The notes under the pieces: model-generated | What the model was told of the DNA's origin: nothing | Databases searched by the model: none | The model's input: the letters and a program-made list of their open reading frames with translations, nothing else | Program-made: the position numbers and the translations under genes | Origin: Planctomycetota bacterium | GTDB lineage: Bacteria > Planctomycetota > UBA8108 > SXIK01 | Direction of reading: 5' to 3' | NCBI GenBank assembly: GCA_965223265.1 | Contig: OZ244999.1 | Coordinates: 2,816,001-2,880,000 of the forward strand | Length of the DNA: 64,000 bases | Part shown: positions 1,782-54,695 of the stretch, piece by piece | How positions within the stretch are numbered: the first letter of the stretch is position 1 | Layout of the letters: the number at the start of each line of letters is the position of its first letter

Positions 1782-2429
1782 ATGAGTGCTAGAACGAAAA
1801 AGAAGTTCGCTCTGTTGATCGTATTCTCGGCGGTAGCAGGCTCCGTGGGCGGGTTCTTTCTTATGGTGGAGCGAACGAAAGGAGCGCAGGAGGACCCTCA
1901 ACTCGAAGAGAGCCGCGTCCTCAAGCCCTTTCAGTGGGGATACGACCTAGGTCAAGAGCGCGCTGGATTCTCTGGCCTCGACACAGTCTATGTCTTCGCC
2001 GACTCTACAGTGAATCTTCCCGTCCTCGAGGCTTGTTTGGATGATCCAGCGGTTGAAGCGGCAATGGGCACCTTCGTTGGTGTGATCCTTTCTGAGACCG
2101 AAGAGGACGCTGTTGCTCGTCGCTTGCGAGAGAAGGACCTCCAGCAGGTTGTCGTCGAATCTCTCAGCGGTCGATATCGCGGTTCACTTCCGCCCGGCTT
2201 TACCTGCGATGAGCTGGTTCTTCTTCTCGAGTCGATCGCCCGTCGACGCATCATCAAGCCCGCTCTGAGTCCGATCCGTTCCAGACTTCGAGTTGACCCT
2301 ACGGCCATTGATGAGTTCGTTGCGCGCGGCGAAATAGACCGCGCACGCAAGTATCTCGACTTCCTCAAGGAGTTCGAAGGAGCGGACAGTCCGGTGGCGC
2401 TAGCCGTTGAAGCCCGGATTCCCCAGTAA
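1782..2429 (+). CDS. membrane-anchored periplasmic protein, possibly thioredoxin-like fold without CxxC
   Basis: ATG 1782 followed by KKK and a hydrophobic helix (FALLIVFSAVAGSVGGFFL); lies directly upstream of the rhs gene; fold call is a weak impression. Confidence 0.6.
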   Translation: MSARTKKKFALLIVFSAVAGSVGGFFLMVERTKGAQEDPQLEESRVLKPFQWGYDLGQERAGFSGLDTVYVFADSTVNLPVLEACLDDPAVEAAMGTFVGVILSETEEDAVARRLREKDLQQVVVESLSGRYRGSLPPGFTCDELVLLLESIARRRIIKPALSPIRSRLRVDPTAIDEFVARGEIDRARKYLDFLKEFEGADSPVALAVEARIPQ

Positions 2430-2511
2430 CCCGGCTGTTCGCCCAGTCCGAGTGCCCGAAGTCAACCCGATCCAATTGTCGGTACCAAAGAGAATCGAAA
2501 GGGGTGTTGAA

Positions 2512-5500
2512 ATGCTGCACGGCACAAAAAGTCCTCTCGTCGCGCGACCCGGTGTTTTCTCTCTCTGTTTGGTGGGGCTCGCTACCATCACCCTCAGCAG
2601 CCTCGCGGTAGAGGACGACTACGAGTTCATGCCGACCCACGCTTGGAGATTCTTGGGTTCTATGGGTGGTGACGACGTCTCTCTCACGCTCGCGGAAGGC
2701 TTTCCGGGACATCGAGTCGAACCCAAGAAGAATCGGTGGATCGCACCCGTTGACGGCGACGGCGGCTTCGACAACGTCGCTCCCCGCCTCGCAGCCGAAG
2801 AAGGGCCGGGAGGTCTCGAATGGGATCCGTCGCCGACTTACCGAACTCGCTACAAAAACGGCACGAACTACTTGCCGAACTCGACGCGACTTCAGGGGAA
2901 CAACTGGTTCACGAGGATCCCGTATGCGGAGTATGACAGCACCAATGACGTTTGGGTCATACGCTTTGACGCGAACATGATTCGCTATTTCGACGTCGAC
3001 AGCCAGAGCTCGACTGTCTACTGGGGGCGCTACGGCAACTCGCGATCGAAGCTTGTCAAGTCGGGAACGAGTCCGAACGGGCTGCTCAAGCTCAGCGATG
3101 CCGGCGGCAAGGTGTACACGTTTAGTGAGTCAGAAAGCTACAAGTGCACGAAGATCGAACCGGTAGGGATAGCTGAGACGACGATCACCTACGCTACGAA
3201 CACGATCACCGTGATCCAAAAGTCGAACTCGAGCACGGAGGTGCGAAAGTTCACGTACACCCTCACCGACCATGGAAACGGAAAACGCATCGACAAGATC
3301 GAAGTCGCCGAAAAAGACGGCACGTGGGGTAGTGCTTACCGAACCATCGACTTCACGTATCATGAGCAGGTCACGTCGCCTGCGGGCAGCTCGACGGGAG
3401 ACCTCGTTGGCATCGAAGAGACGATGGATCTCTCGGAAAGCGGCAAAACATACTCGAGAAAGTGGGTCTTCAAGTACTACACGGGCAGTTACAACGCTCA
3501 GACGAATCCCGGGAATCCCTACCAGATCGAGGCGATCTTGGAGCCAGGAGCGGTTCACGGCTACGAAAGCGCAAATCCAACGCACAACATCTACGAAAAG
3601 AGCGTCACCGACCTGGCGAACTATGTGGACCGCACGTACGAGTACCACTCCGATCGGCGGCTCAAGGAGCTCACGCTCAACGACAACTGCGGCTGCGGCG
3701 GATCGTCCGGAACGTACACGTACTCTTGGGTCAAGAACGGGACGACTCCGACAGATCTCGACACGTGGTTTTCCCGCGTCACGATCACGCTACCAACGAG
3801 CGCGGGCCACTTCATTGACTACAACAAGTATGGGCAGATCCTCAACAGTATGATCCAGGAGGATATAGCGCAGAGCGGCTCACGAAAGTGGATCCGAACG
3901 TACCGTCGTGATGATGATGGATTCTTGACCGATAGTTACTCGGTAGCCGCGTGCGACAGCTACAATACCACTACGCATATCGTGACGACGAACACGACTG
4001 GAGGTATGCACTACCAGTACGATTTCACCTATGACTCTGGGGACGATGACTGGACGCTCACTGCCAAGCTGCGCGATCCAGGAAGCGGGGACTGGAACTG
4101 GCAAGCAAAGAGAGTCTTTACGCTCAAGACCTCGGGTGATCGAAGGAGATTCTTTCAGGACTCCGAGACGATCTACCCGACCGAAACAACGACGGATTCC
4201 GGCGACACGACGTCGTTTGCCTACGAGACCTTTCACACGCTCGACGCTCTGGCGGTTGCGCGTCGAAAGATGACGTTTCCAGTCGTACCTACAGGGGAAA
4301 ACGGATCTGGCAACGCAGTCAGTATCTACGACTATTTCGAACTGGACTCGCTCCACACGTGGACGAAGGACGGCGAGGGGCATGTAGACTACATGGGCTA
4401 TGACGGCGATCGGCGCACGGAAACGATGCACGTCACGGACATCGATACCGATAGCGCAGACCGCCCGGCCGGCGTCCCGGCACCTCCCGATACAACGTTC
4501 AATAGCAGCAGTGGCCTAAACATCGTGACAAAGGACGAGTACGACGTACTCGGGCGCGTCACGAAGAGTGAATCGGCGGCGTTCGATGCGTGGAACGGAA
4601 CGAGCGTGACGTCGACGAAGATCACCAAGAGGTGGCACTACGATAAGCTTTCAGGGGACGAGCTTGTCATCATGGAGTACCCACACATTGACTCTTCGTA
4701 CCATCATGCTGCGATTTCCCTGCAGGTGATCGACCACGATGGGAATGCCGCTACGAGCGCGATGGGAGAGCTCGATACGCTCAAGCGTGATACGACGCTG
4801 TCTGACGATCTCGACGACACCGAAGCGACGATCGAAGACGCGTTTGAGGGGACGATCGTTCAACGCAGAGACTCTACTTACGACGGTTCTAAGGTCCTAA
4901 CGAGCGAAGTGTGGAGCGACGCTTCGAGCTCCCTTGCAGATAAGCACATAACCACCTACACCTACGATTCTTCCGGGAGATTGGAGACAACTAAGAATCC
5001 CGCCGGAACGATCACTCGCTACACCTATGACGTCCTCGGCCGCACGAAGATCACGGAGATCGGGACGGTCGACAGCGGCCCAACTCCCAACATGACGGCG
5101 ACTGAAAAGCTATTCTACGACGACGAGGAAGACACCTCGAGCAACGTGGGCGACGGCTTTCTCACAAGTCGTGTTCGCTACACAAAAAATAGTCTAACCG
5201 AAGGACTGCGAACAACCGACCATGATGTCGACTATCGCGGGCGGGTCACGACAGTGTTTGAGCCTCTTGATGTAAGCGAAGATCGTACGTACGACAATCT
5301 GGATCGCCTAACCCTCATTGAGCGATATGACGATGGCGGTCAGTCCTCAGTCCTCATGAGGAAGACTGAGAATTTCTACGACCCTCTTGGTCAGGCCTAT
5401 GAGGTGAGAAACTACGGGATCACGGGTGGAAGCGGATCTGACTACTCGAAGACAGCGTACTGGCATGATGCGCGGGGTCTGAACATCAAGACGCTGAGCA

Positions 5501-8500
5501 ACGGAAAAGTCTTCAAGAAGACGCAATACGACGGAGCCGGTCGCGCGATCAACCGTGCGACAAGCTATGACGCGGGACAGGATGAAAGTGCGTATAGCGC
5601 GGCGGACGATCTCGACAAAGACACGGTAATCCAAGAGAGTGTCTACACCCGAGATGCTAGCGGACGAGTGGAGCTTGAGGCGACATATGAGCGGCGCCAC
5701 GGAGCGACGGGTGAAGGGAGTCTGACCGTCGGAACCAGCGGCAACGGTCGAGCTCAGTACGTTGCCACTTGGTTCGACGAATTTGGCAGATCTTCTTGCA
5801 GAGCCAACTACGGGACAAACGGAGGGACGGACCTAACGACGCGGCCAACAGGTAGCCCTCCGGCAACGTCAGACGCCAATAGGCTCGTTACGGAGACGAG
5901 CTACACGGTAAAGGGAGAAGTCGAAGAGCAGAGAGGTCCGGCTGTCAAGACTCCTGCGAGTGAGGGCCTTGTCGTAACCCATCGCTATGAGTACACCGAC
6001 TGGGGAGCCACATCCAAACGTATTGACAACTACGTTAACGGAACCCCGGGAGTCGACGACGACAGAACGACCGTCTATACGTACGACAGCGTCGGAAGGC
6101 TGCAAACAATCACCGCCAAAGCCACTACGAACGACCAGGTGACGGAAAATGTCTACGGTGTGACCCGAGGTTCGGGCGACGCGGATTCGCGCATCGCCTC
6201 CAATGATCTCATCAAAACCGTCAAGCACCCTGACCCGTCGAATGGGGGTGCGGGTGGCGTCAACGACCAGGTGCACTATGCGTACAACGCACAGGGTCAG
6301 AGAACGTACATGGAGGACCAGCGTGACACTGCGCACGTTTATGAATACGACGATCGAGGTCGAGTGATTCACGACCGTGTAACGGTCCTCGGAGACACAG
6401 GAGTAGACGGTGCCATACGCCGAATTAGCTGGATCTACGACGCACTCGATCGTACGACGAGGGTCCGCAGCTATGACAACGCCAGCACGACGTCCGGGAC
6501 GATCAAGAACGAAGTTCACTATGTCTACGACAAATTCGGCGTGGTTAAGACAATCTATCAGGAATGGAACGGCTCAGTTGACCTGGGTTTCTCGAACAAG
6601 GTGAGCTACGCGTACAGCTTTCCGACCAATGGGACAACGGGACTCCGTCAGACTTCCACAACGTATCCGAGCGGCGCGGTCATCACAAATGTCTACGATA
6701 GTGGAATCGACGACACAATCAGCCGAGTCAGTGGCAAGAAAAAAGGAAGCGACTGGCTTTTCGAGGATGATTACCTAGGGCTCGGCAGGCTTGTCAAACG
6801 AAGGTACGCTGGGTCCGACACGTACTGGACACTCGAGGGAACAGACTCTGCCAACGCCGACAACTACGTTGGCCTCGATCGTTTCGGGCGAATCGACGAC
6901 TTGGTGGTGATTGATGGGACCACCAATGTCAATCGCTACCTGTACGCCTACAATGACCGATCCCAGATCACCTACAGGGAGGACGAAGTAGGAAACGTCT
7001 CCGGGTCTTACGAGTTTGACCAGCAGTTCACTTACGATGGCCTTGGACGGCTCACAGAACACGAGCGCGGCGAGGAGCTGGATCAGACGCCAACACATAC
7101 CTCTCACGAGTGCTGGACGCTCAATCGCTCGGGGGGCTGGGAAGATTACTACGAAGGGCTAGCGGATCCCTGCGGGACAGGCGTCTCGTGTACGCTGAAC
7201 TCCTCGAATGAGATCACAGACGTAGACTCTGTCGACTATTCGTACGACCGTGCGGGAAACATGACAGAGCGTGGAAGTGATTATGACCTGATCTTTGATG
7301 CCTGGAGTCGTCTCGTCGAAGTCAAGGATGGGGCGGTCACAGTTTCAAAATACGCTTATAACGGAATCCATCAAAAGATATCGAGTGGCGAGTATTCGTC
7401 ACTGGAGTACGACTACTATTACTCGAATAATAATCAAGTCGTAGAGGAGTGGTATAGAGATGATGACGATTACAAGCAGTGGTATGCCTGGGGTACACAA
7501 GATGTTGATGACATCGTCGTTCGATCGACTGGATCAACTTCGTCCTATTTCAAGTATTATGTCCTTGATGCAAACCTCAACGTGGTCACTCGCCTTGGTT
7601 CGACGGGGGCGCCGATCAGCCGGTACGTTTACTACAGCTATGGTGAGCCCAAGCAGCTGAGTTCTAATTGGACGACATGGCAAACCATCACCGAAGACCA
7701 TTACCTATTCACCGGTCGGCAGTATCACCGGAGGCATGGTGCATACGACTATCGAGCTCGCTTTCGGGACGCGGAGATTGGTGGCTTCGTGCAGCGTGAC
7801 CCAATAGGGAGCTGGGGCGATGAAGAAAACTGGGGAAACGGATATATGTACGTGGCAAGCGATCCGGCAAATTTGAGAGATGGCAAGGGGTTGTGGTCGA
7901 CGTCTGATCACGAAAAGCTAACAAACACCACACTGGATCACCTTACAATACGGGAATTATTTGGCGGTTGGGGCTGGATTGGTCGCTGTAAAGAACGAAT
8001 AACTGATGACTTGCACTACTATAATGAACGGCAGGATTCATCCTGGATACTTGGTCCTGTACTTTCTCCTTCAAGGCATTTTATGGCTCCCTACATTGTC
8101 AGTCAAAAATGGATGAGGCGTAGATATATTCGATACGTTGACGATGAAATGGATACCCTGAAAGAGATATTAAAAAATAGTGTTGGAGATTTCGGAGACG
8201 ATGGATGTTGGCGATTTAATAATATGGAAAAATGTACTGAGCAATGCAGTTTCGCTTTGCGATCTCTTGGATATTTGTTGCATAGTTATCAGGATTATTA
8301 TGGTCACTCTACAAACTGGATTAGTGGTGACAATCCTCTCCGACACAGTGATGCGTCTCTGCCAATGAGATGGGAGCCTGAGCATGAAGAGAGGAACTCT
8401 CGTTTCCACTCAGCGCGTTTTTCTTCGGCCTCACTTTGGTCAGCTGAGAAGATATCGACAGAACTCTATATGATGAAAACAGGAAAGATTCGTAAAGTTT

Positions 8501-8559
8501 TGAGTCATCTTTCCCTCCTTTGCTGTGATCTGTCTAGTCCATTTTGGCCGCGAGCTTAA
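2512..8559 (+). CDS. Rhs/YD-repeat polymorphic toxin with signal peptide and C-terminal Zn-dependent phospholipase C/HET-C-like domain
   Basis: Many YD repeats (YTYDSSGRL, YTYDVLGR, YEYDDRGR); Rhs core YLFTGRQY..YDYRARF..GGFVQRDPIG..DPANLRDGKGL; N-terminal hydrophobic helix ending SSLA; tip motif LGYLLHSYQDYYGHS. ATG 2512 with GAAAGGGG upstream preferred over the ORF start at 2407. Confidence 0.93.
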   Translation: MLHGTKSPLVARPGVFSLCLVGLATITLSSLAVEDDYEFMPTHAWRFLGSMGGDDVSLTLAEGFPGHRVEPKKNRWIAPVDGDGGFDNVAPRLAAEEGPGGLEWDPSPTYRTRYKNGTNYLPNSTRLQGNNWFTRIPYAEYDSTNDVWVIRFDANMIRYFDVDSQSSTVYWGRYGNSRSKLVKSGTSPNGLLKLSDAGGKVYTFSESESYKCTKIEPVGIAETTITYATNTITVIQKSNSSTEVRKFTYTLTDHGNGKRIDKIEVAEKDGTWGSAYRTIDFTYHEQVTSPAGSSTGDLVGIEETMDLSESGKTYSRKWVFKYYTGSYNAQTNPGNPYQIEAILEPGAVHGYESANPTHNIYEKSVTDLANYVDRTYEYHSDRRLKELTLNDNCGCGGSSGTYTYSWVKNGTTPTDLDTWFSRVTITLPTSAGHFIDYNKYGQILNSMIQEDIAQSGSRKWIRTYRRDDDGFLTDSYSVAACDSYNTTTHIVTTNTTGGMHYQYDFTYDSGDDDWTLTAKLRDPGSGDWNWQAKRVFTLKTSGDRRRFFQDSETIYPTETTTDSGDTTSFAYETFHTLDALAVARRKMTFPVVPTGENGSGNAVSIYDYFELDSLHTWTKDGEGHVDYMGYDGDRRTETMHVTDIDTDSADRPAGVPAPPDTTFNSSSGLNIVTKDEYDVLGRVTKSESAAFDAWNGTSVTSTKITKRWHYDKLSGDELVIMEYPHIDSSYHHAAISLQVIDHDGNAATSAMGELDTLKRDTTLSDDLDDTEATIEDAFEGTIVQRRDSTYDGSKVLTSEVWSDASSSLADKHITTYTYDSSGRLETTKNPAGTITRYTYDVLGRTKITEIGTVDSGPTPNMTATEKLFYDDEEDTSSNVGDGFLTSRVRYTKNSLTEGLRTTDHDVDYRGRVTTVFEPLDVSEDRTYDNLDRLTLIERYDDGGQSSVLMRKTENFYDPLGQAYEVRNYGITGGSGSDYSKTAYWHDARGLNIKTLSNGKVFKKTQYDGAGRAINRATSYDAGQDESAYSAADDLDKDTVIQESVYTRDASGRVELEATYERRHGATGEGSLTVGTSGNGRAQYVATWFDEFGRSSCRANYGTNGGTDLTTRPTGSPPATSDANRLVTETSYTVKGEVEEQRGPAVKTPASEGLVVTHRYEYTDWGATSKRIDNYVNGTPGVDDDRTTVYTYDSVGRLQTITAKATTNDQVTENVYGVTRGSGDADSRIASNDLIKTVKHPDPSNGGAGGVNDQVHYAYNAQGQRTYMEDQRDTAHVYEYDDRGRVIHDRVTVLGDTGVDGAIRRISWIYDALDRTTRVRSYDNASTTSGTIKNEVHYVYDKFGVVKTIYQEWNGSVDLGFSNKVSYAYSFPTNGTTGLRQTSTTYPSGAVITNVYDSGIDDTISRVSGKKKGSDWLFEDDYLGLGRLVKRRYAGSDTYWTLEGTDSANADNYVGLDRFGRIDDLVVIDGTTNVNRYLYAYNDRSQITYREDEVGNVSGSYEFDQQFTYDGLGRLTEHERGEELDQTPTHTSHECWTLNRSGGWEDYYEGLADPCGTGVSCTLNSSNEITDVDSVDYSYDRAGNMTERGSDYDLIFDAWSRLVEVKDGAVTVSKYAYNGIHQKISSGEYSSLEYDYYYSNNNQVVEEWYRDDDDYKQWYAWGTQDVDDIVVRSTGSTSSYFKYYVLDANLNVVTRLGSTGAPISRYVYYSYGEPKQLSSNWTTWQTITEDHYLFTGRQYHRRHGAYDYRARFRDAEIGGFVQRDPIGSWGDEENWGNGYMYVASDPANLRDGKGLWSTSDHEKLTNTTLDHLTIRELFGGWGWIGRCKERITDDLHYYNERQDSSWILGPVLSPSRHFMAPYIVSQKWMRRRYIRYVDDEMDTLKEILKNSVGDFGDDGCWRFNNMEKCTEQCSFALRSLGYLLHSYQDYYGHSTNWISGDNPLRHSDASLPMRWEPEHEERNSRFHSARFSSASLWSAEKISTELYMMKTGKIRKVLSHLSLLCCDLSSPFWPRA

Positions 8560-46770: not shown

Positions 46771-46931
46771 CAGCCCGCCTGAAAAAGTGCTTCGAGTCGA
46801 AAACTGGTCGCTTCGCGTCCAGATCGGCCGCGGCGAACGTAGGTAATCTCCGCGATTTTCGAGGCTCGCCGCGATCGATCTGGACGTGAAGAGGCCAGTT
46901 TCTCGGCCGAATGACTTTTTCAGGCGGGCTG
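46771..46931 (+). mobile_element. foldback MITE copy 3, TTAA flanks, just upstream of pyrR
   Basis: TIRs CAGCCCGCCTGAAAAAGT / ACTTTTTCAGGCGGGCTG; TTAA on both sides. Confidence 0.87.
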
Positions 46932-49974: not shown

Positions 49975-51159
49975 ATGCTACCCGGCCCAGAGGAGACCGC
50001 GCGTATGGGAGGAATGACCCCACCGAGGGGCTACACCAAGGAACATACCGAAAAGCGTATTCGGTGGTTGGCAGAAAAGACCGGGTTTCACGTCAGGAAT
50101 GGTGAACCCGATGATCCGGCGAAGCTCAAGGGCATCATTGAGAATCACCTTGGCTTTGTCCCCATACCTCTCGCTGTCGCGGGTCCCCTGCTGATTCATG
50201 GCGACTATGCGGAGGGGCAGTTCTACGTGCCGCTCTGTACGCTCGAGGGAACGCTGACGATCTCGATGACACGCGGGCTCTACTTGACCCAGCTCGCTGG
50301 AGGCATCAAGACCCGGCACATCAAGCAGGAGTTGTCGAGGAGTCCCCTCTTCGTCTTCAACGACATCGATGAAGTGGAGCCGTTTCAGGAGTGGGTGGAC
50401 GCTTCGTTCGAGTCGATCAAGGCTGCAGCGGAATCAACGACACGCTATGGGCGCCTACTACGGATTGATCAATACACCGTACGTAACAGCGTCATACTGG
50501 ATTTCATCTACAATACTGGCGAGGCGGCCGGTCAAAACATGGTGACTCTCGCGACGTACGAGGCGTGCGCGTACATTCGCCAGAACTACACCTCGGGACG
50601 ACCGCGAAACTACTACATCGAGTGCAACTTCAACTGCGACAAGAATCCAGCGTACAAGTCCGTGCTTCATGGCCGAAGCCATCAAGTCATCGCCAGTGCG
50701 CTCATCCCCGGCCGTTTCTTGAGGCGCGTGCTTCGTACCACCGCGCAGGAATACTGCGAAGCATGGTCTCACTGCACCCGCAGCGGGCAGATCGCGGGCG
50801 TCGTTGGCAACAACCTTCATGTCGCCAACGCGTTGGCCGCCATCTATCTTGCCACCGGGCAGGACGTGGCCTGCGTCGCCGAGAATGCGGTCGGCAACGT
50901 TGAGTTTGAGGTGCGAGACCAGGAGAATCTGTTCGTCACGTTGACGATGCCGTCGATCAGCGTCGGCACCGTAGGTGGTGGAACGACCTTGTCACATCAG
51001 AAATCGAATCTTGAAATGCTCGGCTGTAGCGGTAAGAACTCCTCTAAGAAACTTGCCGAGATCGTTTGTGCGTCTGCTTTGGCGCTGGAGCTCTCTTTGG
51101 GAGGCGCCATCGTCAGTGATGAGTTTGCCCAGGCTCACGCGATGTTCGGTCGGCGCTAG
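49975..51159 (+). CDS. class I HMG-CoA reductase-like protein
   Basis: IENHLG, VPLCTLEGTL, GEAAGQNMVT, CDKNP, ANALAAIYLATGQDVACVAE, VGTVGGGT, AQAH..FGR; start may be 50005 or 50014. Confidence 0.9.
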   Translation: MLPGPEETARMGGMTPPRGYTKEHTEKRIRWLAEKTGFHVRNGEPDDPAKLKGIIENHLGFVPIPLAVAGPLLIHGDYAEGQFYVPLCTLEGTLTISMTRGLYLTQLAGGIKTRHIKQELSRSPLFVFNDIDEVEPFQEWVDASFESIKAAAESTTRYGRLLRIDQYTVRNSVILDFIYNTGEAAGQNMVTLATYEACAYIRQNYTSGRPRNYYIECNFNCDKNPAYKSVLHGRSHQVIASALIPGRFLRRVLRTTAQEYCEAWSHCTRSGQIAGVVGNNLHVANALAAIYLATGQDVACVAENAVGNVEFEVRDQENLFVTLTMPSISVGTVGGGTTLSHQKSNLEMLGCSGKNSSKKLAEIVCASALALELSLGGAIVSDEFAQAHAMFGRR

Positions 51160-51335
51160 CGCCAGTAGCCATGCGTCGAACACCGCGCGAGCGTGCCGCG
51201 GCAAACAGTTCGAAAAGCCGTTTCGAAAAGCAGTTCTGAAAAGACACGTGAAGTAGGACCGATCCAGATTGACGACGCTGCCGACTGACCATCTCCAGTT
51301 GAGTGGCGCACTGAACTACGAACGGAGCGAGAGTC

Positions 51336-52094
51336 ATGGTGAAAAGTCTTCAGTATGAGCTGGAGCATGCGACAACCGAGCCCCAGGTGACGTCGCCGCA
51401 TCACGATTCACCGCTCTTCGTGCGCTGCACGCAGCGTTTGTTTCAGTCCTTCAGTCAGTTCGTGCTGAAGTTCTACTGCCCCATGCAGGTCGACGGCCGT
51501 GAGTACTTGCCCACGTCGCCGTTTCTGCTTTGCAGCAATCATAACAGTCACATGGACAGCCCCGTCCTCATGACTGCGTCTCGATTGCCGTTTTCGAGCT
51601 TTGGGATGCTGGCAGCGCGAGACTACTTCTTCGAGAATCGCACTCGCCGCGTCGGCTCGCAGATGATCATGAACCTCATTCCGATCGAACGCAACGCCAA
51701 CCGCAAGAGTATTCTGCAGTCCGTTGCTTCGTGTCAAAGTTTCATTCGCGCTGGCGGCCGCGGCTTGATCATTTACCCGGAAGGGACGCGGTCGACGACT
51801 GGCGTGCTGCGTGGCAAATTCAAGAAGGGGCCGGCGATTATCGCAGTCGAGCTCGGCCTGCCGATCGTGCCGGTCTATGTCTCGGGCACGAGCGCGGCGT
51901 GGGGTAAGGGCAAGCGATTCATGCGACCGCGACCCATTCGGGTGACCTTCGGCGCGCCCATCATGCCTGACGAGTTCGCAAGCGATGGGTTCGGGCAAGA
52001 CGGCGGCGGTGACGTGTCGCGCTTCGAAGCCTACCGAGCCATGACGGAGGAGCTCGAGAAGCGTGTGCGGGCCCTCAAACCCTCGGGCGATTGA
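51336..52094 (+). CDS. PlsC-family glycerolipid acyltransferase
   Basis: NHNSHMD (HX4D), IYPEGTRS, FKKG, PIVPV. Confidence 0.93.
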   Translation: MVKSLQYELEHATTEPQVTSPHHDSPLFVRCTQRLFQSFSQFVLKFYCPMQVDGREYLPTSPFLLCSNHNSHMDSPVLMTASRLPFSSFGMLAARDYFFENRTRRVGSQMIMNLIPIERNANRKSILQSVASCQSFIRAGGRGLIIYPEGTRSTTGVLRGKFKKGPAIIAVELGLPIVPVYVSGTSAAWGKGKRFMRPRPIRVTFGAPIMPDEFASDGFGQDGGGDVSRFEAYRAMTEELEKRVRALKPSGD

Positions 52095-53834
52095 GTGTCC
52101 GCGCCGACGCAGATGAAGTGGTGGGGTTGGGGCGACCCGGAGAAGGCGTTCGATCCGGCTGATAAGCCCTACCTGTGGCCGTTCATCGAGACGACACTCG
52201 GGATTTCTTCGCGGGCTCAGACGCCTCCGGTTCGCCTCGACGACATCGACATTCCCCCAAGCCGGTTGCACGAGACGGCGTTCAAGCACCTTCGCTCGGA
52301 GCTCGGCGACGAGCGAGTTTCGTCAGATGACTTCGATCGACTCCTGCACGCCTACGGTAAGAGTTTTCGAGATGTCTGGCGACTGCGCCATGGCATCGTC
52401 GACGTGGCTCCTGACTGCGTTGTCTATCCTGAAACGGAGCGCGACGTCGTCGCGGTTGTGACCGCGTCGCTCGAACACGAGTTCGTTGTGATCCCGTTCG
52501 GTGGCGGCTCGAACATTGCCGGCTGCGTTGAAGCGCGCGACACAGAGCGACCGATTGTCTCCGTCGACATGAAACGGCTGAAGCGGCTCCTGCAGGTTGA
52601 TGAAGAGTCGATGATCGCGCGGGTCGAGACAGGAGTGATGGGGCCTGATCTTGAGGCACAGCTCGCACCGCATCGTGTCACGCTGGGACACTTTCCCGAC
52701 TCGTTCGAGTACTCGACTCTCGGCGGCTGGATCGCAACGCGCTCTGCCGGCATGCAGAGCGATAAGTACGGTAAGATCGAAGACATGGTCATCGCCCTGC
52801 GAATGGTGACGCCGCAGGGGACGATCGCGACGCGGGAGGTGCCGAAATGCTCGAACGGCATCGACGTGAACCACCTTTGCATCGGCAGCGAGGGAATCCT
52901 CGGAATATTGTCCGAAGCGACCATGCAAGTTCATCGTCTGCCCGAGCGGCGGGAGGCGTACGGCTACCTCTTTCCCGACTTCGAGAGCGGTGTGCGGGCG
53001 ATTCGTCGCTGTGTCGAGGACGACTGCATGCCGGTTGTGACCCGATTGAACGACATCGGCAAGACGGCGCTTTCGTTCGCATTCAAGTCACCGTCGACTG
53101 GCTTCAAGACGGTGGCGAGCAAGGCCGTGAAGTCCTACTTGAGCAAGGTTCGTGGTTTTGACTTGCAGGCTTGCTGCCTCATGGTGACGATCCTCGAGGG
53201 CAGCGAACGCGATTTTCGTCGGCAGCGCCGCCGTGTCGAGCGCATCTACCGTGCGAGCGGTGGTGTGTGTCTGGGCACGGAGCCCGGCCGCTCTTTCGAA
53301 CGTGCGAAATACGACTTTCCGTATTTGCGCGATCACGTCATGGACCACAACATCATCGCCGACGTGAGCGAAACCTGCACCGTGTGGTCGAATCTCTTGC
53401 CCCTTTATGAGGGTGTTCGCAAGGCGATCGACAGCGCCATTCGTGACACCGGCCGGCAACCGTTTCTCGGTTGTCACGTCAGCCACACGTATCACACGGG
53501 CGCTAGCCTCTACTTCACGTTCGCCTGCGAAGGCGTGCCGGAGCGAGAGCTCGAGCAGTATCTCTACATCAAGAAAGCAGCGCAGGATGCATTCATCGCC
53601 GCCGGGGGCACGCTCTCGCACCACCACGCTGTCGGTTACGAGCACATGCCTTGGATCGAAGAGGATATTTCGCCCGCAGGCGTCGCCGCTGTGCGCGCTC
53701 TGAAGCGCGGCCTCGATCCCCGCGGCCTGATGAACCCGGGTAAGATCCTTCCCGGCGATGCGGCGCGGCGATTCGACGATTGGGGGTTCGGTGCGCAAAG
53801 TCAAGCTCGGTTCGACGAGCAGCGTGAGGCCTGA
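52095..53834 (+). CDS. alkyldihydroxyacetonephosphate synthase (AGPS)-like FAD oxidoreductase
   Basis: MKWWGWG, PFGGGSN, GHFPDSFEYSTLGGWIATRSAG..KYGKIEDMV, GSEG.LG, SHTY..GASLYFTF, GGTLSHHHAVG, MNPGK. Confidence 0.9.
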   Translation: MSAPTQMKWWGWGDPEKAFDPADKPYLWPFIETTLGISSRAQTPPVRLDDIDIPPSRLHETAFKHLRSELGDERVSSDDFDRLLHAYGKSFRDVWRLRHGIVDVAPDCVVYPETERDVVAVVTASLEHEFVVIPFGGGSNIAGCVEARDTERPIVSVDMKRLKRLLQVDEESMIARVETGVMGPDLEAQLAPHRVTLGHFPDSFEYSTLGGWIATRSAGMQSDKYGKIEDMVIALRMVTPQGTIATREVPKCSNGIDVNHLCIGSEGILGILSEATMQVHRLPERREAYGYLFPDFESGVRAIRRCVEDDCMPVVTRLNDIGKTALSFAFKSPSTGFKTVASKAVKSYLSKVRGFDLQACCLMVTILEGSERDFRRQRRRVERIYRASGGVCLGTEPGRSFERAKYDFPYLRDHVMDHNIIADVSETCTVWSNLLPLYEGVRKAIDSAIRDTGRQPFLGCHVSHTYHTGASLYFTFACEGVPERELEQYLYIKKAAQDAFIAAGGTLSHHHAVGYEHMPWIEEDISPAGVAAVRALKRGLDPRGLMNPGKILPGDAARRFDDWGFGAQSQARFDEQREA

Positions 53835-54695
53835 GTGAGCGAAAGCGCTGTGCCCAGCCGTGGTGGACCGTGCGGCGGCCAGGCCGTGGCCATCACCGGC
53901 GCTTCGTCCGGCCTCGGAGCGGCGCTCGCCGAAGAGTTCGCCCGGGCCGGCGCTGACGTAGCGCTCTTCGCACGCCGGCGGCCTGAGCTCGAGGCGGTTG
54001 CCGAGCGATGCCGCCGGCACGGAGCGCGTGCGGTCGTTGTCGCCGGCGACGTGACGCGTTACGAGGATTGCGAGCGACTGATCGAAGACGCCGCGGAGCA
54101 GCTTGGCGGCGTCGACTGCGTCGTCGCCAATTCAGGTATCAGCATGTGGGCGCGCTTCGATGAGGTGGAAGACATTTCCCTCTTCAAGCAGCTGATGGAC
54201 GTGAACTACCTTGGCGTTGTGCATACGGTGCACGCCGCGCTTCAGGCGCTCCTCAAAAGTCGTGGCATGATCGTCGTGGTTTCGTCCGTGCAGGGATGCG
54301 TCGGCGTGCCGTTTCACACGGGCTATGCTGCGAGTAAGTTCGCACTGCACGGATTCGTCGAGTCGCTGCGCCTTGAACTCGAGGGCACGGGTGTCGACAC
54401 CCTCATCGCCATGCCATATTGGATGCGCGGCACGGAACTCAGGGGAAGCGCCCTGTCGGCAAGCGGCGGCGAGGTAGGGACGGCGCGGCGCCAACACTCG
54501 CGCGGCGCCGTCGACGTCCAGGAGTGCGCGCGGCGCATTGTCGCGGCGACCGCGCGGCGTGAACGCCAGCTGACGATTCCCGGCAAGCTACGGTTTCTCC
54601 CGCTCCTCAAGGCGTTGGCGCCGCGGCTGACCGAGTCGATTGTGCGGCGCAAGATGCGGCGCGAGGATGCGCGAGGGCCGGCAGGAAGCGAGTGA
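53835..54695 (+). CDS. classical SDR oxidoreductase (DHRS7/7B-like)
   Basis: ITGASSGLG, NSGI, MDVNYLG, VSSVQG, YAASK; GTG directly after the AGPS TGA. Confidence 0.92.
   Translation: MSESAVPSRGGPCGGQAVAITGASSGLGAALAEEFARAGADVALFARRRPELEAVAERCRRHGARAVVVAGDVTRYEDCERLIEDAAEQLGGVDCVVANSGISMWARFDEVEDISLFKQLMDVNYLGVVHTVHAALQALLKSRGMIVVVSSVQGCVGVPFHTGYAASKFALHGFVESLRLELEGTGVDTLIAMPYWMRGTELRGSALSASGGEVGTARRQHSRGAVDVQECARRIVAATARRERQLTIPGKLRFLPLLKALAPRLTESIVRRKMRREDARGPAGSE

Follow-up and report, generated by a model that had tools for sequence, protein, structure and literature searches.

Here we describe a cluster of four co-oriented genes in the genome of a planctomycete (Planctomycetota bacterium, GenBank assembly GCA_965223265.1). 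The genes encode a reductase with the fold of 3-hydroxy-3-methylglutaryl-CoA (HMG-CoA) reductase (HMGR), an acyltransferase (AT) of the PlsC/ElbD type, an alkyl-dihydroxyacetone phosphate synthase (AGPS) and a classical short-chain dehydrogenase/reductase (SDR). The cluster lies in a stretch of 64,000 nucleotides (contig OZ244999.1, positions 2,816,001 to 2,880,000), which is referred to below as the window. We consider it probable, at about 0.72, that the four genes form a conserved and horizontally spread operon for the oxygen-independent, AGPS-type synthesis of 1-O-alkyl glycerophospholipid precursors.

In the proposed pathway the reductase, an enzyme of the FcrA type, would use NADPH to reduce a long-chain acyl-CoA to the fatty alcohol, a four-electron step. 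The acyltransferase would acylate dihydroxyacetone phosphate (DHAP) to 1-acyl-DHAP. AGPS would bind the acyl-DHAP on its oxidised flavin, release the fatty acid and take in the alcohol to give 1-alkyl-DHAP. The SDR would then reduce the keto group, and the resulting 1-alkyl-sn-glycerol-3-phosphate would enter ordinary phospholipid synthesis. A pathway of this kind had been put forward in an earlier, sequence-only reading of the window. The protein families, the catalytic residues, the loss of HMG-binding residues and the gene order all fit it, whereas the substrates that the acyltransferase and the SDR accept, and the lipid that is formed, stay at the level of prediction. We infer the reductase activity of this particular protein, the use of DHAP by the acyltransferase and of alkyl-DHAP by the SDR, and the actual production of ether lipids.

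The reductase and the FcrA signature

A fatty acyl-CoA reductase derived from HMGR is already known, as is the suggestion of a link to ether lipids (PMC11948995). The purified FcrA of 'Ca. Promineifilum breve' (Pb-FcrA) uses NADPH to convert acyl-CoA of at least C14 to the alcohol (Grossi et al., ISME J 2025, PMC11948995). HMG-CoA is not a substrate, and simvastatin does not inhibit the enzyme. FcrA proteins keep the catalytic residues of HMGR, and the genomes that carry them are described in the same paper as being without a mevalonate pathway. Three changes make up their signature: Glu stands at Ser684, a generally small residue takes the place of the HMG-binding Lys, and a bulky residue, Trp in Natronomonas, that of Leu862 (PMC11948995). 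The conserved HMG-binding lysine is printed as Lys795 in that paper and as Lys735 in PMC9500038, where it forms a salt bridge to the HMG carboxylate. Grossi et al. proposed that some FcrA may provide alcohols for ether lipids. They also describe a PlsC-like gene adjoining fcrA in one species and, at a distance of nine genes from Pb-fcrA, an AGPS gene (PMC11948995).

The window reductase was aligned by HMMER to the archaeal HMGR 6hr7 (251 bits) and to human HMGR (178 bits). The human residue numbering was anchored on the DKK cis-loop of the alignment and checked against the residue lists of PMC9500038 and PMC3875450. The catalytic Glu559, Lys691, Asp767 and His866 are retained as E91, K223, D297 and H388, and Arg590, Ser565, His752 and Asn755 are likewise retained. 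Ser684 is E216, Lys692 is N224 and Lys735 is C267, so that all three HMG-binding residues expected of a biosynthetic HMGR are substituted. The Cys at Lys735 appears in both the HMMER and the MAFFT alignments; the loop is two residues shorter there than in canonical HMGR, which makes this equivalence approximate. Leu862 is F384. Both the Glu at Ser684 and the Phe at Leu862 are present in 23 of 23 full-length AGPS-linked homologues. One further AGPS-linked reductase (locus L116), which shows 60% identity across more than 80% of its length, stands outside these residue counts, its match having overrun an upstream stop. Against the HMGR equivalog model TIGR00533 (NCBIfam) the window protein scores 280.3 bits, below the cut-off of 441.8.

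Every sequence trait listed above for FcrA is thus found in the window reductase, which is probably an FcrA-type fatty acyl-CoA reductase making fatty alcohol. The sequence-only reading had given this HMGR homologue the same role. The assignment is well supported by the FcrA signature, by the orphan status of the gene and by the gene context, and the enzyme type itself has been published as FcrA (PMC11948995).

A search with the window reductase returned 748 representatives at E <=1e-30 among 1.84 billion proteins, and six among those listed are at least 45% identical to it. The canonical Ser/Lys/Leu signature occurs in only 3 of 195 rows, made up of the 150 best representatives and the survey loci described below. 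A tree of 74 rows (24 AGPS-linked reductases, 6 nearest representatives, 28 random others, 9 loci of the phylum, 3 canonical sequences and a divergent outgroup of 4) was built with IQ-TREE by quick search and with no mixture model. One clade (99% SH-aLRT) unites the 24 AGPS-linked genes with the six near representatives. This clade is sister to FcrA-signature proteins, which are often multidomain, and stands apart from the canonical clade (100% support). The window reductase groups with genes of Calditrichota and Bacteroidota and not with those of the other planctomycetes, a grouping that points to horizontal transfer.

Other HMGR-fold proteins were seen in passing. A divergent family at eight planctomycete loci (L021, L023-L026, L029, L030, L033) is 28-33% identical to the window reductase. 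It has Gln at Arg590, Glu at Asp690, Arg at Lys692, Tyr in the Lys735 column and Gln at His752, and by these residues is neither canonical HMGR nor FcrA-like. A protein of 741 residues (P0011) joins an N-terminal PilZ domain to the HMGR fold and has Arg in the Ser684 column, hence no FcrA signature; the fusion hints at control of an FcrA-like enzyme by cyclic di-GMP.

Conservation of the gene cluster

Among 301 genomes of the phylum, 26 have HMGR-like genes, 36 have AGPS-like genes and 10 have both. The two are adjacent in five: the source genome and four genomes of a single genus, which belongs to the same taxonomic order but to another family, all with the same gene order. The proteins of these four relatives are 60-62% (reductase), 41-43% (acyltransferase), 60% (AGPS) and 50-51% (SDR) identical to those of the window, and one of the four loci ends inside AGPS at a contig edge. 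Their flanking genes (sulfatases, a Kazal-domain protein, a WelO5-like protein) are unrelated to those of the window.

A wider survey compared an AGPS alignment with one genome per species (185,579 species), and the best 80 of 528 confirmed relatives were analysed. Neighbours were scored by tblastn at E <=1e-10 over more than 100 aligned residues, with at least 36% identity for the acyltransferase and the SDR. The order FcrA-AT-AGPS-SDR was found at 19 of these best 80 loci, FcrA-AT-AGPS at four (two of them ending at a contig edge) and AT-AGPS-FcrA at one. AT-AGPS-SDR and AGPS-SDR were seen once each, both cut off upstream, and AT-SDR-AGPS once; 40 loci had AT-AGPS and 13 had AGPS alone. A survey of gene neighbourhoods had been suggested by the sequence-only reading as a check on its proposal, and FcrA-AT-AGPS(-SDR) indeed recurs at 24 of the best 80 AGPS loci, in eight phyla.

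The 24 loci with FcrA belong to Planctomycetota, Gemmatimonadota, Verrucomicrobiota, Calditrichota, Ignavibacteriota, Bacteroidota, Gammaproteobacteria and KSB1, and they are 24 of the 27 loci outside Acidobacteriota and Chloroflexota. The acyltransferase orthologue adjoins AGPS at 66 of the 80 loci. The SDR orthologue lies 3' of AGPS at 19 of the 24 FcrA-linked loci, and two of the five exceptions end at a contig edge. The recurrence of the same four genes in the same order in other genomes puts the arrangement far beyond chance. Pairwise identities of FcrA and AGPS across the operons are correlated (Spearman 0.74 over 276 pairs, which are not independent of one another).

Two of the three FcrA-less loci among the 27 are cut off upstream, and the sole complete exception is that of a Coxiellaceae metagenome-assembled genome (L114, 5873-11647). 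Its order is fatty acyl-CoA reductase (FAR), acyltransferase, SDR, one gene, AGPS. The FAR domain, directly 5' of the acyltransferase, is of the FarA type and, across 511 residues, shares 31% identity with the FAR portion of an ElbD-type protein. FcrA and FarA, two unrelated reductases, fill the same operon slot, which makes this a clean case of non-orthologous displacement. A FAR-domain match also stands beside AT-AGPS at two Bryobacterales loci (L123, L149).

At loci of Verrucomicrobiota and KSB1 (L095, L102, L105, L113, L169) the gene 3' of the SDR encodes a second PlsC-type acyltransferase. In the verrucomicrobial locus L095 (3316-12028) the operon is followed by this second acyltransferase and then by fabD, fabG and fabF, and thus borders on genes of fatty-acid synthesis. 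An 836-residue frame at L072 that looked like an SDR-AGPS fusion was rejected; the SDR match lies in another frame, and Pfam gives no SDR domain there.

More distant AGPS homologues of the phylum (33-40% identity; L074:7369-10031, L075:2724-7344, L078:2823-6917) lie in a different AGPS-centred cluster, beside a GlpD-like dehydrogenase and a lipid kinase. The partners are a glycerol-3-phosphate dehydrogenase (DAO and DAO_C) and a DAGK_cat/YegS_C lipid kinase, which are fused once in a protein of 1013 residues. That cluster could supply DHAP.

Acyltransferase, AGPS and SDR

The acyltransferase has the HX4D motif (H69-x4-D74) and YPEGTR. It matches PF01553 only, and its sole relative in the PDB is the PlsC of Thermotoga (5kym). 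The best of its longer relatives are proteins of about 1400 residues with the ElbD architecture FAR-AMP-ACP-AT (31-38% identity); others are AMP-ACP-AT proteins of about 910 residues. Its nearest multidomain relatives are of the ElbD type and not of the type of eukaryotic GNPAT. A single AT-AGPS fusion protein was found (P0159, 753 residues, from a lone 3.1-kb contig). The acyltransferase is predicted to be a DHAP acyltransferase yielding 1-acyl-DHAP.

The AGPS motifs that the sequence-only reading had listed are all present in the translation, as QMKWWGWGD, LGHFPDSFEYSTLGGW, SLYFTFA and SHHHAVG. Matches to PF01565 and PF02913 show the VAO-type FAD domain with its cap. The protein matches the solved structure of Dictyostelium ADPS (2uuu) at 437 bits and that of mammalian AGPS (4bby) at 319, and the next family, D-lactate dehydrogenase, at 101. 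The HHH motif, whose loop we take to be a functional site of AGPS, corresponds to H509-H511 and is invariant across a six-sequence alignment. Mutagenesis of Dictyostelium ADPS showed that R352, R447 and Y508 matter (PMC3509576); these are R317, R412 and Y473 in the window protein and are invariant in the same alignment. The window AGPS is clearly orthologous, by these comparisons, to the eukaryotic enzyme.

The SDR carries TGASSGLG and YAASK, with Arg-Arg-Arg after the second strand, and scores 282 bits against NF004825 (cut-off 215). Its nearest solved structures are clavaldehyde dehydrogenase and 11-beta-HSD1. We predict that it reduces 1-alkyl-DHAP with NADPH, giving 1-alkyl-sn-glycerol-3-phosphate.

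Genome context

The window reductase is the only PF00368 gene of the source genome. In the whole of this 9.18-Mb genome, a single contig, HMG-CoA synthase and diphosphomevalonate decarboxylase were not found, and mevalonate kinase gave no match above the cut-off. Genes of the methylerythritol phosphate (MEP) pathway are present (two IspH genes and DXR). As a control in the phylum, the search for HMG-CoA synthase matched two of three genomes with a canonical-signature HMGR and neither of two genomes with the four-gene cluster. The sequence-only reading had seen no other mevalonate gene in the window and had proposed to look for HMG-CoA synthase and mevalonate kinase genome-wide; the picture extends from the window to the genome. 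Judged by gene content, the genome has the MEP pathway and the HMGR-like gene is an orphan, outside any mevalonate pathway.

A few genomes of the phylum (L020/G098, L022/G074, L172, L173) have a canonical-signature class-I HMGR together with HMG-CoA synthase, and some members of the phylum may therefore have a mevalonate pathway.

An ElbD-type FAR domain was not found in the source genome by tblastn with an ElbD-type protein. Matches to PF07993 are weak there (at most 46 bits), and this family matches 14 of 14 control genomes and so carries little information.

Gene layout and junctions

The coordinates of the four genes are given in Table 1. The sequence-only reading had described four co-oriented genes, the last three abutting as TGA-GTG with no bases between. 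All open reading frames (ORFs) lie exactly where it had placed them, on the forward strand, and the Pfam families agree with its assignments; the abutment holds for the ORF boundaries at both junctions. The acyltransferase/AGPS junction at 52092-52097 reads ...GAT TGA GTG TCC..., and the AGPS/SDR junction at 53832-53837 reads ...GCC TGA GTG AGC.... The three ORFs (51336-54695) share one reading frame and are parted only by single TGA codons with GTG directly after. AGPS has another possible start at Met7 (ATG at 52113), and for the reductase the conserved Met11, at 50005, is probably the start.

Table 1. Genes of the cluster and the gap within it (positions in the window)
Feature	Position	Strand	Details
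HMGR-like reductase (FcrA-type)	49975-51159	+	394 aa; PF00368 HMG-CoA_red, 338 bits
Gap between reductase and acyltransferase genes	51160-51335	+	176 bases; three ~13-base direct repeats
Acyltransferase, PlsC/ElbD type	51336-52094	+	252 aa; PF01553, 73 bits
AGPS	52095-53834	+	579 aa; FAD_binding_4 (PF01565) and FAD-oxidase_C (PF02913), 126 bits each
Classical SDR	53835-54695	+	286 aa; adh_short, 167 bits

The repeats in the gap are TTCGAAAAGC-like and start at 51209, 51222 and 51234 (within 51205-51245), with a period of about 13 bases. The exact copies of TTCGAAAAG are the sole close non-overlapping pair across the 9.18-Mb genome, and the repeats may be a regulator-binding site. Scans with promoter and terminator consensus sequences gave no forward-strand site within 51160-51335; terminator-like sites, six seen against 4.6 expected, are at chance level.

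The cluster sits downstream of pyrR-pyrB-pyrC. The only Rfam match in the window is RF03240 at 46800-46901, just 5' of pyrR, at 41 bits against a gathering score of 79. The family name is surely wrong for a bacterium, and a conserved hairpin, for instance a pyr leader, may be present there. An ORF of 2050 residues (2407-8559) occupies the part of the window that is lowest in G+C (0.49-0.57, against about 0.61 elsewhere).

Alternative explanations

It is very improbable that the reductase is a true HMGR, making or degrading mevalonate and merely standing beside a lipid operon. The strong PF00368 match and the intact catalytic tetrad are what such an enzyme would have, but the protein falls well below the TIGR00533 cut-off, its ligands of the HMG carboxylate are substituted (for the role of Lys735, PMC9500038), and HMG-CoA synthase, mevalonate kinase and diphosphomevalonate decarboxylase were not found in a genome that has the MEP pathway. 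In the tree, the HMGRs of the phylum with the canonical signature fall into a clade of their own, and HMG-CoA synthase accompanies them in two of three genomes. Improbable, too, is a fatty acyl-CoA reductase whose alcohol goes to wax esters or is left free, so that the adjacency of AT, AGPS and SDR would be no pathway link. A wax synthase of the WS/DGAT family was not found in the source genome or in the four cluster-bearing relatives. The same search gives matches above the cut-off in 7 of the 301 phylum genomes, one of which also has a Trp-type FcrA with an N-terminal extension. A wax-ester role for the reductase is unlikely, because WS/DGAT was not found in these five genomes though the search works in the phylum. 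FcrA was, however, discovered as the supplier of alcohol for wax esters (PMC11948995), the reductase gene is parted from the next by 176 bases, and acidobacterial AT-AGPS pairs do without FcrA. These points have to be set against the adjacency of the reductase at 24 of the 27 loci outside Acidobacteriota and Chloroflexota, in eight phyla and with gaps between tblastn hits down to 0-7 bases, against the FarA-type reductase in the same slot at one locus, and against the separate clade of the AGPS-linked reductases.

It is unlikely, although worth keeping in view, that the same four reactions lead to another ether product than bulk membrane lipid. Such a product could be neutral alkylglycerols, a minor lipid of signalling or stress, or the starting material of vinyl-ether plasmalogens. 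The verrucomicrobial operon that continues into a second PlsC-type acyltransferase and fabD-fabG-fabF points instead to core membrane lipid synthesis. A desaturase of the CarF/PEDS1 type (PF10520) was not found in the source genome, but the control of this search matched nothing anywhere. On the other side, the AGPS route of Myxococcus xanthus gives only minor amounts of ether lipid (10.64898/2026.06.23.733905), the patchy distribution of the operon (5 of 301 phylum genomes) suits an accessory trait, and the window's cluster holds no gene for a head group or for sn-2 acylation.

Several observations weigh against the proposed ether-lipid operon itself. None of the 52 acidobacterial loci and not the one Chloroflexota locus has FcrA, the acidobacterial loci have no SDR orthologue near AGPS, and no PF00368 gene was found in five genomes sampled from these groups; AGPS therefore does not need FcrA. 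The characterised FcrA is only distantly homologous to the window reductase. The AGPS-linked clade is nested among FcrA-signature sequences in a tree that holds three canonical rows and no reference FcrA from Promineifilum or Natronomonas. The Lys735 column of this clade has Lys in 13, Cys in 8 and Ala in 2 of 23 full-length homologues, the 13 being those of Verrucomicrobiota and one gammaproteobacterium, and the change at Lys735 is therefore not general for the clade. The spacing of 176 bases between reductase and acyltransferase compares with 0-97 bases between tblastn hits at other loci. The acyltransferase has no sequence feature that proves DHAP as its acceptor over glycerol-3-phosphate or lysophosphatidate, and the SDR family is too broad for its sequence to fix a substrate. 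Pontiella has elbD homologues and yet no ether lipids were detected in it, so that the presence of genes need not mean the lipid (PMC11868695). In the literature searched, alkyl ethers of planctomycetes are mentioned only for anammox bacteria (PMC13159169, PMC11868695).

Significance

Non-isoprenoid alkyl glycerol ethers serve as environmental biomarkers, and for most bacteria we know of no genes behind them. Surveys so far look for single genes (agps, elbD, ger). A conserved four-gene module would be a far more specific genomic marker of the capacity to make ether lipids. It would also give candidate genes for two bacterial steps that have none, the acylation of DHAP and the reduction of alkyl-DHAP, and would make the idea that FcrA feeds ether lipids directly testable.

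No description of an FcrA-AT-AGPS-SDR operon was found in the literature searched, to which subscription journals and supplements did not belong; the supplements of PMC11948995 may list fcrA neighbourhoods. What seems new is the tight FcrA-AT-AGPS-SDR operon across many phyla, a variant of the known bacterial AGPS route. A broader proposal, which we offer tentatively and at slightly less than even odds, is that the FcrA-AT-AGPS-SDR set, joined in some lineages by a second PlsC-type acyltransferase, works as a self-sufficient ether-lipid cassette that moves horizontally and has spread across at least eight phyla. Its acyltransferase and SDR would then be the first DHAP acyltransferase and alkyl-DHAP reductase of bacteria to stand alone, and for the non-isoprenoid 1-O-alkylglycerol lipids of oxic soils and waters the cassette would be a major source that has gone unrecognised.

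Comparison with known ether-lipid systems

In the anaerobic PlsA/PlsR and Ger routes, an ester bond that is already in place is converted by reduction. Their end products are also bacterial sn-1 ether glycerolipids. The sequence-only reading had set the pathway apart from the anaerobic Ger/plasmalogen routes; by Pfam and NCBIfam none of the four genes resembles PlsA/PlsR or Ger enzymes, which are unrelated in sequence. It had also called the pathway distinct from myxobacterial ElbD, and here only a part stands: the reductase has the HMGR fold, but the acyltransferase is homologous to the AT domain of ElbD-type proteins, and M. xanthus itself has an AGPS operon (PMC13012113). The likeness to the elbB-E system lies in this domain, the C-terminal AT of the FAR-AMP-ACP-AT proteins (31-38% identity). 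The differences are that the cluster holds no multidomain protein, that no ElbD-type FAR domain was found in the genome, and that the ether bond is assigned to AGPS.

The window reductase agrees with FcrA in its class-I HMGR fold, in its catalytic residues (Glu, Lys, Asp and His), in the three signature changes and in coming from a genome without a mevalonate pathway. In its characterised form FcrA works together with WS/DGAT in wax-ester synthesis, and an N-terminal Lad or ACP domain is found in many members, whereas the window protein is a bare domain of 394 residues with Phe, not Trp, at Leu862 and with the clade-specific changes of Lys692 to Asn and His861 to Glu. Its gene stands in a tight cluster with AT, AGPS and SDR and no WS/DGAT was found in the genome, while the AGPS gene of Pb-fcrA lies nine genes off.

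The MXAN_1676-1675-1674 operon of M. xanthus encodes AGPS and a FAR-acyltransferase fusion, and deletion of MXAN_1676 blocks the ether lipids of that route (PMC13012113, citing Lorenzen et al. 2014). Like the window cluster, it is a bacterial AGPS-dependent route with reductase and acyltransferase encoded beside AGPS. There a FarA-type (NAD_binding_4) reductase domain and the acyltransferase form one protein, whereas the window has an unrelated reductase of the HMGR fold, a single-domain acyltransferase of 252 residues and an SDR after AGPS.

The peroxisomal pathway of eukaryotes employs FAR1/2, GNPAT, AGPS and an acyl/alkyl-DHAP reductase (DHRS7B/Ayr1). The window cluster would carry out the same four types of reaction, with an AGPS that is orthologous (437 bits to Dictyostelium ADPS) and keeps the catalytic residues. 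It differs in that FAR is replaced by a non-homologous enzyme and the long GNPAT by a short acyltransferase of the PlsC/ElbD type.

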